In this document: one piece after another, positions 5,080 through 25,522 of the stretch
Layout of the letters: the number at the start of each line of letters is the position of its first letter
Position numbering within the stretch: the first letter of the stretch is position 1
IMG/VR virus record: IMGVR_UViG_3300032233_002160
Location: 1 to 25,768 of that record
Length of the DNA stretch: 25,768 nt
Source of the DNA: a virus
Lineage: Duplodnaviria > Caudoviricetes
Strand: one strand, 5' to 3'
Position numbers and translations under genes: made by a program
The notes under the pieces: model-generated
The model's input: only the letters and a program-made list of their open reading frames with translations
Databases searched by the model: none
What the model was told of the DNA's origin: nothing

Positions 5080-5151
5080 GCCTCTGTAGCTCAGTGGTAG
5101 AGCAGCGGTTTTGTAAACCGCTGGTCGCAAGTTCGAATCTTGTCGGAGGCT
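5080..5151 (+). tRNA. tRNA-Thr(TGT)
   Basis: Acceptor GCCTCTG/CGGAGGC; anticodon arm GCGGT-TTTGTAA-ACCGC; GTTCGAATC. Confidence 0.95.
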
Positions 5152-5152
5152 C

Positions 5153-5181
5153 TTGACATAATATTCGTTATGTCTTATACT
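5153..5181 (+). promoter_or_regulatory. sigma70 promoter
   Basis: TTGACA-17 nt-TATACT. Confidence 0.75.
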
Positions 5182-5203
5182 TCACAAGTCCGTGTGGAGG
5201 AGA

Positions 5204-5226
5204 ACACTTCCCTAAATAGGAAGTGT
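5204..5226 (+). promoter_or_regulatory. Hairpin with a late promoter in its loop, upstream of the HNH gene
   Basis: ACACTTCC-CTAAATA-GGAAGTGT, a perfect 8-bp inverted repeat. Confidence 0.7.
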
Positions 5227-5240
5227 ATGTGCTAAATCAA

Positions 5241-5705
5241 ATGAGAACTAAAACTGAATTATTAAATGCAGTTGAAGCATCTCAATCGATGGCTGAGGTC
5301 ATAAGGAGATTAGGTCTTAATAAAAGTAGTGGTACTTATACTACTATAAAAAAAGAACTTAAATATCACAATATACAACTTAATTTTAAAAATCGTAGTA
5401 GATCAACTATTAGATATAAAAATGAAGAAATATTTTGTGAAAATTCTACTTATGATAGATCAACTCTTAGGAATAAAATTATTAAAGAATTAATTCTTGA
5501 ATATAAGTGTTCTGATTGTGATATAATTGATTGGAATGGGAAAAAACTTTCTCTCCAATTGGATCATATAAACGGAGTTCCTAATGATAATAGGATGGAA
5601 AATCTAAGATTTCTTTGTCCCAATTGTCATTCTCAAACAAAAACTTGGGGGAATAAAAATAATCCCCCGACCGAGAGTGATGCCAAAAGTAAGGCACCCC
5701 GATAA
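5241..5705 (+). CDS. HNH homing endonuclease (free-standing; start may be GTG 5223)
   Basis: CSDC...LQLDHINGVPNDNRMENLRFLCPNCHSQT; HTH-like N-terminus SMAEVIRRLGL. Confidence 0.9.
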   Translation: MRTKTELLNAVEASQSMAEVIRRLGLNKSSGTYTTIKKELKYHNIQLNFKNRSRSTIRYKNEEIFCENSTYDRSTLRNKIIKELILEYKCSDCDIIDWNGKKLSLQLDHINGVPNDNRMENLRFLCPNCHSQTKTWGNKNNPPTESDAKSKAPR

Positions 5706-5742
5706 GGGATACAGTAGAAGGATGCGAAACCTTCCACTCTCA
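5673..5742 (+). ncRNA. Aberrant tRNA-like element (pseudo-tRNA or tRNA mimic)
   Basis: GAGAGTG/CACTCTC+A acceptor; TGCC-AAAAGTAA-GGCA D arm; CCC-CGATAA-GGG short anticodon arm; GAAGG-ATGCGAAA-CCTTC T arm. Confidence 0.65.
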
Positions 5743-5810
5743 CAAACATTAGGTAAGTAAAGTAAAAGGAGCATGGGAACCAGTAATGGAGATACCGCAC
5801 CTGCCTATAT

Positions 5811-5882
5811 GCGAAATTAATTCAGCGGTAGAATGTCTGCCTTCCAAGCAGAACGTCAGGAGTTCGAATCTCCTATTTCGCT
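5811..5882 (+). tRNA. tRNA-Gly(TCC)
   Basis: Acceptor GCGAAAT/ATTTCGC; anticodon arm TCTGC-CTTCCAA-GCAGA; GTTCGAATC. Confidence 0.95.
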
Positions 5883-5940: not shown

Positions 5941-7428
5941 ATGAAATTTTTCAAACAACTGATGCTTGCACCTGTTGCTCTTGGAATGATTGCACCTGCC
6001 GCACAAGCAGCAGACATCAATCTTTCTTCGATTAATCAATATGCTTCGGCAGAACAGGTCACAAGTGTTACACAATTCTCTGATGTAAAACCTACTGATT
6101 GGGCATATCAGGCACTCAGCAACCTCGTAGAGCGTTATGGTTGTGTTGCAGGATACCCTAATGGTACTTTTGCAGGTGGGAAAGCAATGACTCGTTTTGA
6201 GGCAGCGGCACTTCTGAATGCCTGCCTTGAGCGTGTCACTGAAACAACTGATGAACTTCGCAAACTTCTTACCGAGTTCGATACAGAACTGACTGTTCTG
6301 ACTGCTCGTGTGGATGGTCTTGATAAGAAAGTTGGTCGTCTTCAGGCACAACAGTTCTCTACTACTACCAAACTGAAAGGTGAGGCAAGTATGGTTCTGG
6401 GTGGTGTTCCTGGACTTAAGACCACTACTGGTACTGAGTCTGGTAATACCGCATTCAATTATGACCTTCGTATCAACTTTGATACATCGTTCACTGGTAA
6501 GGATTTGCTCCGTACTCGTCTGCGTTCTGGTAACTTCTCCAGTCAACCTTTTGGTTCTTCTTCGTCACTGTTCAAACTTGACAAAGCAGAAACTTCACAA
6601 GGAACTGGTACTACTAGCAATGTCTGGTTGGATCGTCTGTACTACACCTTCCCTGTTGGTAAGAATGTAAAACTGACTGCTGGTCCTTTGGTTCGTAACA
6701 CTGAACTTGCTTGGATTCCTTCAGCATATAAGTCGGACATTCTTGACTTCTTCCAACTTGGTGGTGCATCTGGTGTCTATAACAAGGCAACTGGTGCTGG
6801 TTTTGGTGCTCAATACACTCAACCAGGAGCACAAGGTTTGGTTGCTAACTTGAACTATATTGCCGAAAATGGTAATGATAGTTCTACCGGTGCCTTTGAT
6901 TCCACTGGTAAACTGAACTTGCTTGCTCAGGTTGGTTATCGTGCTCCTCAGTTCGGTGTTGCCGTTGGTTACCGTTATGGTACTGAAGGTTCACGAGTTC
7001 GTACCTTCAATGCTCTTGGCGGTGGTTCTGGTGCTCTTACAAACGGTCAGGATTCCAACAGTGTAGCATTCAATGCTTACTGGCAACCCAAGACCTCTGG
7101 TATCGTTCCTTCAATCAGTTTTGGTTATGGGTATAATGGTGTGAATGGTGCTGGTGCAAGAACTGGTGCTACCAATTCACAATCTTGGTTCACTGGTCTT
7201 CAGTGGTCTGATGTGTTTGCTAAGGGTAATGCTGCTGGTATTGCTGTTGGACAACCTTCAAACTCTGAGAATGCTGCCAAGGCAACAATGCTTGAGTTCT
7301 TCTACAAGTATCAGGTTAGTGACAATATCTCAGTTACTCCTGCTATCTTCTATGCCTCGGACAATCAAGGTGATAAGACTGCTTCCTCTAACTGGGGTGG
7401 TGTAATTCAGACTACCTTCAAGTTCTGA
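5941..7428 (+). CDS. Cyanobacterial outer-membrane porin (Som/OprB type with SLH domain)
   Basis: Signal peptide; QVTSVTQFSDVKPTDWAYQAL..LVERYGCVAGYP SLH domain; FSTTTKLKGE; C-terminal TTFKF. Confidence 0.93.
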   Translation: MKFFKQLMLAPVALGMIAPAAQAADINLSSINQYASAEQVTSVTQFSDVKPTDWAYQALSNLVERYGCVAGYPNGTFAGGKAMTRFEAAALLNACLERVTETTDELRKLLTEFDTELTVLTARVDGLDKKVGRLQAQQFSTTTKLKGEASMVLGGVPGLKTTTGTESGNTAFNYDLRINFDTSFTGKDLLRTRLRSGNFSSQPFGSSSSLFKLDKAETSQGTGTTSNVWLDRLYYTFPVGKNVKLTAGPLVRNTELAWIPSAYKSDILDFFQLGGASGVYNKATGAGFGAQYTQPGAQGLVANLNYIAENGNDSSTGAFDSTGKLNLLAQVGYRAPQFGVAVGYRYGTEGSRVRTFNALGGGSGALTNGQDSNSVAFNAYWQPKTSGIVPSISFGYGYNGVNGAGARTGATNSQSWFTGLQWSDVFAKGNAAGIAVGQPSNSENAAKATMLEFFYKYQVSDNISVTPAIFYASDNQGDKTASSNWGGVIQTTFKF

Positions 7429-10961: not shown

Positions 10962-10971
10962 GGACTTTTAT

Positions 10972-11054
10972 GGAAAGAGTCCGGTTGGTCGAGGACACCG
11001 CCTTGAAAGCGGCTGGGTATAAACACTTCGCAGGTTCGATTCCTGTTCTTTCCG
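10972..11054 (+). tRNA. tRNA-Ser(TGA)
   Basis: Acceptor GGAAAGA/TCTTTCC; anticodon arm CCGC-CTTGAAA-GCGG; long variable arm; GGTTCGATTCC. Confidence 0.93.
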
Positions 11055-12058: not shown

Positions 12059-12245
12059 TCTCGGAAAGACTTAAAACCTGCCCTGGTCGGGAGCAACCCC
12101 TTCAGTCACGGAGAGACTTTAAAAGTACTGGTGGAGTCAAATATGACCCTATTGTTTTATTGCTTTTCTCAAAAGCAATTGGTGCGGGTGGGGAATACTG
12201 CCGCCTGGTTTCCAATTTCCAGTTAAAGAATTGGTGGCGTGCATG
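12057..12245 (+). ncRNA. Structured RNA, probably the manA RNA motif
   Basis: Non-coding block with AGTC/GACT hairpins, an ATTGCTTTT/AAAAGCAAT stem and a CTGG/CCAG + CCAATTT/GAATTGG pseudoknot, upstream of nucleotide-sugar genes. Family assigned from recall, not by search. Confidence 0.6.
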
Positions 12246-12256
12246 AAAGACCTAAG

Positions 12257-13315: not shown

Positions 13316-14554
13316 ATGTTTCATAAAATAGAAAAGTGTAGAGTCTGTGGAAATGAACATTATTCCACAGTTTTAGATTTGGGCAATCAATATCTTTCTG
13401 GGATTTTTCCTAAATCTATAGATCCTGATATGTATCGTGGACCCTTAAAACTTGTTAAGTGTGATGAACTAACAGGTGGATGTGGCCACGTTCAATTGGA
13501 ACATACCTTCGATCTCCCTACAATGTATGGGCAAGAATATGGGTATCGTTCTGGATTAAATGATAGTATGGTAAAACATCTTAGAGGCAAGTATGAAAAA
13601 ATTTCTAATTTTCTTGATCTAAAGGAAAATGACATTGTAATTGATATTGCTGGAAATGATGGCACATTTCTTGGGTTCTTTTCGTCAGAATTAAAATTAG
13701 TAAGTATTGATCCAACTTCTAAAAAGTTTTCAAAGTACTTCAAAGAACATGTAAATTATATTGCAGACTTTTTTAGTGAAAAAACCTTTAGAGAATTTTT
13801 TGCAACTTCTAATGCAAAGTTAGTAACTTCATTTTCAATGTTCTATGACTTGGAAGATCCTTGTCAGTTTGCTAAAGAGGTTAATTCTATTTTAGATCCT
13901 GAAGATGGTATTTGGGTTTTGGAGCAGAGTTATATGCCTGAGATGCTTCGTGCAAATTCTTTTGATACTGTATGTCATGAGCATCTATCATACTATGGAA
14001 TGAGGCAACTGAAATACATCATGGATCAGGCAGGATTAAAGATTATTGATTTTGAATTTAATGATGTAAATGGTGGAAGTATTTCACTTGTAGTTGCAAA
14101 TAAAGATAGTAAATATGAAGAAGCAACTCAAATGTTGAACGATCTTCTTCAAGAAGAATTGGACCTTAAACTTAATACTACCGAACCTTGGAATGATTTT
14201 TCTTTCCGTATTGAAGAATGTAAAATTAAGTTCTGGGAACTTATTAATGAGTGTAAAGAGGATGGATTAAAAATTGCTGCTCTTGGGGCCAGTACAAAGG
14301 GTAATGTAACAATTCAAACTTGGGGAGTTACTCCTGATGATATTAAAGTCGTTGGTGAAGTTAATCCTGATAAAGATGGATCATTTACACCTGGAACTTG
14401 GATTCCTATTAAAAATGAAGATTCTGTAATTGAAGAATATGATGTCTTTGTAATTCTTCCTTGGCACTTTAAAAATTTCTTTATTAACAGTCCAAAATTC
14501 AAAGGCAAAAAATTATTGTTCCCACTCCCAAATGCCGAAATTGTAATTCCTTGA
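13316..14554 (+). CDS. NDP-hexose C-methyltransferase (C3-methyltransferase family)
   Basis: N-terminal Zn site CRVCG...C...CGHVQL; SAM motif DIAGNDG; FDTVCHEHLSYY; GASTKG; LPWHF. Confidence 0.85.
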   Translation: MFHKIEKCRVCGNEHYSTVLDLGNQYLSGIFPKSIDPDMYRGPLKLVKCDELTGGCGHVQLEHTFDLPTMYGQEYGYRSGLNDSMVKHLRGKYEKISNFLDLKENDIVIDIAGNDGTFLGFFSSELKLVSIDPTSKKFSKYFKEHVNYIADFFSEKTFREFFATSNAKLVTSFSMFYDLEDPCQFAKEVNSILDPEDGIWVLEQSYMPEMLRANSFDTVCHEHLSYYGMRQLKYIMDQAGLKIIDFEFNDVNGGSISLVVANKDSKYEEATQMLNDLLQEELDLKLNTTEPWNDFSFRIEECKIKFWELINECKEDGLKIAALGASTKGNVTIQTWGVTPDDIKVVGEVNPDKDGSFTPGTWIPIKNEDSVIEEYDVFVILPWHFKNFFINSPKFKGKKLLFPLPNAEIVIP

Positions 14555-25386: not shown

Positions 25387-25420
25387 GATGTTAAGAAATC
25401 AACATATTTCTTAATCTTCT

Positions 25421-25522
25421 GTAACCGAGATCATCAGAAGTAAAGCATCTCTCATACCTGCACTGGAGGGTGGTGTAGGATATACTGTACTCGTTCAGTC
25501 CCCCCTGAATTCATACTTACCC
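25421..25522 (+). ncRNA. PhotoRC-II-like cis-regulatory RNA
   Basis: psbA leader with GAGAT/ATCTC, CCTGCACT/GGTGTAGG and TTCAG/CTGAA hairpins, and complementary G-rich and C-rich loops. Family assigned from recall. Confidence 0.7.

Follow-up and report, generated by a model that had tools for sequence, protein, structure and literature searches.

A tightly conserved, tRNA-shaped RNA family before tRNA-Gly in freshwater cyanophage tRNA operons

The 70-nt sequence at positions 5673–5742 (+ strand) of virus record IMGVR_UViG_3300032233_002160, here called element A, belongs to an uncatalogued, tightly conserved, tRNA-shaped RNA family in the tRNA operons of freshwater cyanophages. It is very probably a real RNA under selection, and our tentative reading, to which we give a probability of roughly 0.4, is that it is a non-decoding tRNA mimic acting in trans on a tRNA-binding protein of the host. 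The tRNA clusters of phages are interpreted as a stock of decoding tRNAs. In the cluster described here, a single slot carries interchangeable non-decoding RNAs, and one of these, element A, is held more tightly than the adjacent tRNA-Gly. Should element A prove to be a tRNA decoy, this would be a new form of RNA counter-defence, and at minimum it is a small, well-bounded and uncatalogued RNA family.

The window, that is, the whole 25.8-kb stretch of DNA analysed, is a virus record with a T4-like cyanophage gene set that includes tRNA genes, an SLH-OprB porin, a wcaG RNA (12151–12248, before a GDP-mannose dehydratase-like gene) and a PhotoRC-II RNA (25402–25493). The closest cultured phage sharing its gene order is S-SRM01, a freshwater Synechococcus phage. 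Around element A, all on the + strand, tRNA-Thr(UGU) (5080–5152; ARAGORN, Rfam) is followed by a putative sigma70-type promoter (5153–5181; 11/12 consensus matches, 17-nt spacer), a conserved transcript leader (5188–5202), a hairpin (5204–5226) and an HNH endonuclease ORF (5223–5705, starting at GTG 5223 or ATG 5241). Behind element A come a second RNA, element E (5750–5807), tRNA-Gly(UCC) (5811–5882; ARAGORN) and the SLH-OprB porin gene (5941–7428), which often, though not always, follows tRNA-Gly. All 53 HNH-less contexts have a −10-like box in the 60 nt preceding element A. ARAGORN called six genes in the window and missed element A, as an earlier reading of the sequence alone had expected; it also missed a tRNA-Ser(UGA)-like gene at 10971–11054, which scored 40.2 bits with the tRNA-Sec model.

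The cloverleaf proposed in that sequence-only reading was found at 5673–5742 with the letters it had given. The predicted fold is a four-way junction closed by a 7-bp outer stem (5673–5679/5735–5741), which, with A5742 as discriminator, matches a tRNA acceptor stem. A5680 stands in the place of U8, the D-like loop AAAAGTAA (5685–5692) contains one G instead of the GG pair, and the 5-bp T-like stem (5717–5721/5730–5734) carries the 8-nt loop ATGCGAAA (5722–5729), with G at position 55, instead of TTCGAAT, so that all three absences claimed earlier hold. The fold has a predicted energy of −25.7 kcal/mol (z −5.12; equalled by 0/200 shuffles). Within the 624-nt context 5187–5810, pairing probabilities in the outer, D and T stems are 0.99–1.0, except for the outer D pair (0.75), and the short stem reaches 0.9. 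The D stem does have 4 bp in the window, as had been stated; its outer pair is lost without compensation in 8 of the 19 alleles aligned, and the D-like arm (5682–5695) is therefore better described as 3 conserved pairs behind a 2-nt linker. Likewise, the stem in the anticodon position is only 3 bp long, as claimed, in a different register: 5698–5700/5706–5708 around a 5-nt loop, GAYAA, has a probability of 0.9 vs 0.09 for the alternative, and the sole compensated pair (5700–5706; allele L291, also L604) falls in it. A U at position −1, present in 50/57 contexts, could extend the outer stem to 8 bp.

Across the 19 alleles, 96.5% of cells pair. Four of the 20 pairs counted vary by G-U wobble and one by a two-sided change, and one pair each in the T stem, the outer stem and the inner D stem is broken in 1/19 alleles. 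One two-sided change was reached in 78/500 shuffles, so covariation is not significant, because the family hardly varies. The varying columns comprise 6 of 32 unpaired and 10 of 38 paired positions; the loops are thus as fixed as the stems, which favours tertiary structure or binding over decay of the loops.

Relatives were collected with three pattern scans of viral contigs, each targeting a different part of element A. The first found 42 whole copies and 1 truncated copy in 46 loci, the second found element A in 55/62 loci and the third in 58/69, the remaining loci being chance matches; a metagenome scan added 49 further loci, with overlaps to the viral-contig scans. The matches listed from a looser pattern scan were mostly chance, and that scan was set aside. 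In one copy (L007 850–929) the 5′ half is missing and the remainder is joined to the tRNA before it. Once duplicates were removed, 57 different contexts remained, with 19 different alleles of the 70-nt sequence. tRNA-Gly(UCC) lies within 330 nt after element A in 170 of 170 scorable matches, 15 of the total of 185 being left out as too near a contig end.

Mean pairwise identity over the 57 contexts is 97.2% within element A (minimum 87%). The 60 nt before it average 76.6%, and the tRNA-Gly next to it, represented by 22 sequences that form 11 clusters at 85%, averages 70.3%. In the segments of 17 carriers, third codon positions of the porin are 67% identical vs 98% for element A. The majority frequency is 0.98 inside element A and falls to 0.75 and 0.67 in the flanking 6 nt, a drop that is inflated by indels because the comparison is ungapped. 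Since the pattern scans demand conserved letters, loci found by promoter and leader alone served as a control: in these 7 contexts identity was 96.2% vs 75.9%, and half-decayed copies numbered 0. A tRNA pseudogene should change faster than neighbouring tRNAs; the 97% vs 70% identity shows the reverse, and none of the homologues found is an ordinary tRNA, so that element A is neither a pseudogene nor the one-off degenerate tRNA that would have undone the original proposal. The inference of selection in the sequence-only reading thus survives on conservation, structure and lack of decoding features, while its argument from intact stems and decayed loops falls away, the loops being equally invariant. 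Distant homologues were found neither by the three pattern scans nor by model searches. BLASTN against 50,697 phage records, a set from which records very similar to the window may be missing, gave no record with 80% cover, the relative S-SRM01 lacks element A, and the covariance model had no match in 151 host-family genomes under strict filters run without a positive control.

The departures from a decoding tRNA affect every arm, all of which differ from tRNA in length. Decoding tRNAs have a 5-bp anticodon stem with a 7-nt loop and U33, as well as U8, G18G19 and T54-U55-C56 in a 7-nt loop; the short arm of element A consists of 3 bp and a 5-nt loop, U33 occurs only in the L291-type allele, and the other three features are replaced by A8, a single G and an 8-nt loop with G at 55. 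Rfam returned nothing on element A at E ≤ 10, including searches with short stretches, and the tRNA model RF00005 had no match. The earlier statement that both elbow partners are lost is nevertheless too strong: the T-like arm (5717–5734; 5 bp, 8-nt loop a-UGCRA-AA) is altered, yet U54, C56, R57 and A58 align with tRNA T-loops, and the commonest change in this loop is G/A at 57, where tRNAs vary too (372 G, 147 A). We take UGCRA to fit the general T-loop consensus. A GNRA loop closed by a U-A pair is an equally good reading of this loop, and allele L355 is compatible with neither. When the element A model was run unfiltered over 90 kb from six cultured phages, its 8 best matches were real tRNA genes, and the alignment was in register, placing the loop as a-U54-G55-C56-R57-A58; tRNAs made up 10 of the 19 matches, though they occupy 2.6% of the strands. 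The scores were low (12–18 bits), and the test is partly circular because the cloverleaf was supplied to the model.

The stretch 5694–5708 is identical in its 15 nt to the anticodon arm of host tRNA-Ile(GAU) minus U33, that is, 15 of 16 bases in register. This arm occurs in 73 of 101 host-family genomes searched. Under two strict scorings the match was reached by 3/1000 and 5/1000 shuffles, under lenient scoring by 353/1000, and for the commoner GAC allele (37/57 contexts) by 167/1000; 31 host tRNAs, taken from 30 of 45 loci, entered the comparison, and the match is a post-hoc one, sought with the tRNA-Ile arm already in view. With 556 phage tRNAs in place of the host set, strict scoring gave an ordinary best match (33/100 shuffles). 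GAU is an Ile anticodon and GAC a Val anticodon, and IleRS and ValRS both use A73. The match suggests, though it does not prove, that element A descends from tRNA-Ile or mimics it.

Element A shares its place with other RNAs. The order in HNH-less loci is promoter, 15–25-nt leader, cassette, 3–6 nt and tRNA-Gly, and the slot contains element A in 57 contexts, an unrelated folded RNA (cassette B) in 16 and a plain hairpin (cassette C) in 15, counts that reflect the scans used and not natural frequency. The slot of S-SRM01 is filled by the plain hairpin, and in some phages the slot is empty. Each of cassettes A, B and C finishes with a helix a few bases short of tRNA-Gly. Of the 19 tRNA-Gly alleles, 5 are found next to two or three types of cassette, which indicates that the cassettes are swapped. 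Cassette B, about 55 nt long (e.g. L235, L250, L251 and L318), gave no Rfam match and no BLASTN match in phage records; by eye, its internal loop is presumably kink-turn-like. Element A persists without the leader (L017, L168) and tolerates a 490-nt HNH insertion before it and insertions of 62–143 nt behind it, and is therefore a self-contained unit. It behaves as a self-contained gene that is not needed for tRNA-Gly. In L108-type loci, the stretch of 143 nt between element A and tRNA-Gly is AT-rich.

Element E, an optional, strongly covarying RNA unrelated to element A, follows it in 13 of 57 contexts, the window included, and is widespread in phage tRNA clusters (at least 119 matches, L420–L538). 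It covaries better than element A: one pair is C-G in 36, A-U in 34, G-C in 3 and U-G in 1 of 74 distinct sequences, and two inserted stems are hypervariable. Among 16 loci there was no Rfam match to element E, including none to manA, so that this identity was rejected, and BLASTN against phage records returned partial matches only, in 4 records. In two loci (L034, L397), element A, element E and an abiF RNA stand in a row, and in S-CREM1 the slot before tRNA-Gly itself holds the Rfam abiF RNA. abiF RNAs above the gathering score lie flush before cyanophage tRNA genes in L612 (1532–1568), L034 (995–1031), L397, L482 and L230 (5521–5557). The abiF-associated RNA is described as an antitoxin in the part of PMC12737573 covered here, and it is possible that these cyanophage copies are stand-alone antitoxin mimics.

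The leader is common to all cassette types and resembles the 5′ UTR or ribosome-binding motif that precedes the start codons of host porins; in L408 an ORF follows it immediately. It is nearly complementary to the Yfr1 motif, and the window's variant type pairs best with it (the L025-type leader at −14.4 kcal/mol). Among the 14 commonest variants, only 2 beat shuffles (p < 0.05), so that a role as a Yfr1 sponge is no more than a lead.

The HNH ORF is an optional insertion, present between leader and element A in 4 of 57 contexts, and its match to HNH_3 (21.1 bits) is below the cut-off of 24.8. It does end inside element A, with TAA at 5703–5705, as the sequence-only reading had pointed out, although the overlap is incidental. 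Most close relatives of the HNH protein end at WGNKK, and the last residues of the window's ORF are borrowed from element A. The HNH of context L006 stops before element A, in the database proteins P0001 and P0004, which have the C allele, the frame continues to a later stop, and protein P0010 is the same HNH reading into cassette B. The overlap says nothing about the RNA, and a selected stop was rejected on these grounds despite the T in all 4 HNH contexts. The hairpin at 5204–5226, part of the insertion, has TAAATA in its loop and covers the HNH ribosome-binding site, and by analogy it may exert translational control of the T4 type. In the portion of PMC2330249 covered, T4 provides the precedent for such a hairpin and, with segB, for an endonuclease gene of this kind among tRNA genes. 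A motif resembling this TAAATA is found again ahead of the porin gene and is likely a late promoter.

Contigs from RNA libraries covered element A in 4 of 4 runs, although ends, strand and level are invisible in them and DNA carry-over is uncontrolled; the runs came from 4 studies and were drawn from 24 listed (23 recorded as RNA), and runs X5–X7 had small word shares. One contig (X5) runs through element A, element E, tRNA-Gly and the porin.

On the tRNA-mimic reading, the unit from promoter to tRNA-Gly would be transcribed from the putative sigma70-type promoter, and RNase P cleavage at tRNA-Gly would free the 3′ end of element A a few bases past its closing stem. A second cut at G5673 could follow, with trimming and possibly CCA addition; potential cues are G+1, the U at −1 in 50/57 contexts, the minihelix of 7+5 bp and the T-loop-like loop. 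RNase P prefers G+1 and U−1. It also accepts non-tRNA substrates with a T-loop-like loop, according to the part of PMC4919913 covered. Element A encodes no CCA, and a CCA-enzyme domain was not found in the three phage records searched. Release as a discrete RNA is, in our judgement, probable, and the freed element would most likely persist as a compact RNA whose altered elbow and Ile/Val-like short arm, with GAU/GAC at the 5′ side of the loop and A73, would permit protein binding and no ribosome entry. Candidate partners may include an anticodon nuclease, a tRNA-sensing defence protein or a synthetase. That relatives manage without element A makes it less likely that its role is strictly to help process tRNA-Gly. 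A more specific proposal, which we regard as rather unlikely, makes the slot an exchangeable counter-defence RNA cassette, with element A as a tRNA-Ile/Val look-alike soaking up a tRNA-cutting or tRNA-sensing defence protein, much as the slot's abiF RNA would an RNase toxin; loss of one anticodon-loop base would then have made a ribosome-proof look-alike.

Not all of the evidence leads to mimicry. The near-invariant loops and junctions exceed what tRNA mimicry alone needs, every arm deviates from tRNA lengths, and the slot and its neighbours hold RNAs that are not tRNA-shaped (cassette B, element E, abiF, wcaG, manA), so that element A might instead be a small structured RNA that is freed from the operon and uses its invariant loops to bind a protein or small molecule, antitoxin- or aptamer-like, with the tRNA shape a coincidence or a processing handle. 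The 7+5-bp minihelix, the T-loop alignment and the Ile-arm match all point back to tRNA, no ligand or partner gene was found and the downstream gene varies, and we hold this alternative possible but doubtful. Its position, always first behind the promoter and before tRNA-Gly in 170/170 matches, together with contig X5 and the shared helix end of cassettes A, B and C, would also suit a role in cis, in which element A would form the folded 5′ leader of a tRNA-Gly–porin transcript and stabilise that transcript or tune its processing or porin expression. Yet relatives manage with a plain hairpin or nothing, element A tolerates insertions on either side, the porin comes next in only 20 of 36 contexts scored (by a crude motif test on a subset, which misses some porins), and neither a + strand terminator nor a start codon is coupled to element A, which together make such a role unlikely.

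A functionless tRNA-Ile relic, its apparent conservation owed to recent recombination or HNH-driven homing, would explain why the family is tight, with no distant members in the three pattern scans and model searches, why cassettes are swapped against shared tRNA-Gly alleles (5/19) and why an HNH gene sits in the slot, and the main scans did require conserved letters. We consider it improbable: conservation falls at the helix ends, most stem changes preserve pairing, HNH is present in 4/57 contexts only and enters cassette B too, and the promoter- and leader-found sample of 7 contexts held no half-decayed copies. Less credible by far is a short peptide encoded by element A and read from the ribosome-binding motif of the leader. 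Nine of 16 variable columns do fall on third positions of one open frame behind a ribosome-binding-like motif, but this frame is the best of several, picked afterwards, the frequent changes either replace amino acids or destroy the ATG, and there is no shared stop, the frame entering tRNA-Gly in differing registers. Two further identities were discarded: a manA RNA split by HNH, as there is no manA match and HNH-less relatives have no manA here, and group I intron, ribozyme or RNase P RNA, for which nothing fitted by eye against their consensus features and Rfam gave no support.

Among known systems, the nearest parallel is the T4 tRNA cluster, which yields two small stable RNAs, species 1 and 2, cut from the same precursor as the tRNAs in a cluster that also contains a homing endonuclease gene, as here (PMC2330249, in the part covered). 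Like element A, these RNAs, rnaC (139 nt) and rnaD (119 nt), are structured non-tRNA units in a phage tRNA cluster. They are larger, have other folds, rnaC with a canonical T-arm, and their existence is demonstrated, whereas element A is known from sequence, predicted fold and contigs; the element A model found no match at the corresponding T4 locus (L608 1409–1672) that would indicate homology. Because S-SRM01 carries a plain hairpin in the same slot, the role of such T4-type 'extra' stable RNAs is testable by cassette swap. Bacterial tRNA-Ile(GAU) shares with element A 15/16 anticodon-arm nucleotides (window allele), A73 and the 7+5-bp minihelix, and differs in that element A lacks U33, has a 3-bp stem with a 5-nt loop, reads GAC in 37/57 contexts, has no U8, GG or TTC and shows no similarity in the other arms.

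A tRNA-like shape without a working anticodon arm is shared with the tmRNA TLD, YrlA, skipping-rope and DUF2693-FD RNAs; mascRNA is another tRNA-like non-decoding RNA. Such RNAs keep a canonical T-loop, which element A does not. Several of them are RNase P substrates, as given in the covered part of PMC4919913. The skipping-rope (RF02924) and DUF2693-FD (RF02926) models gave 0 matches at E ≤ 10, in a search in which no control genome passed the cut-off, and none in cmscan; the tmRNA and YrlA models had no match at element A, where neither a tag frame nor a Ro-binding stem was seen, the only YrlA match lying on a tRNA-Asn/Thr pair. A description of element A was not found in the literature searched, including the covered parts of PMC2864571, PMC9964418, PMC6778093, PMC2190773 and PMC6191309, and subscription papers may differ. 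Six supplement files of PMC10690425 held no match, and element A may be among the 10,006 candidates of that study, which was covered in part.

The RNAs abiF (RF03085), manA (RF01745) and wcaG (RF01761) adjoin cyanophage tRNA genes flush, as element A does, and have no sequence or structure match to it. The manA model had no match in the window and matched S-CREM1 with 96.6 bits; the abiF model had none in the window and gave separate matches beside element A in L034 and L397. In S-PM2, the stretch before tRNA-Gly (L611, ~13970–14130) contains, by eye, a wcaG-like sequence and a small hairpin.
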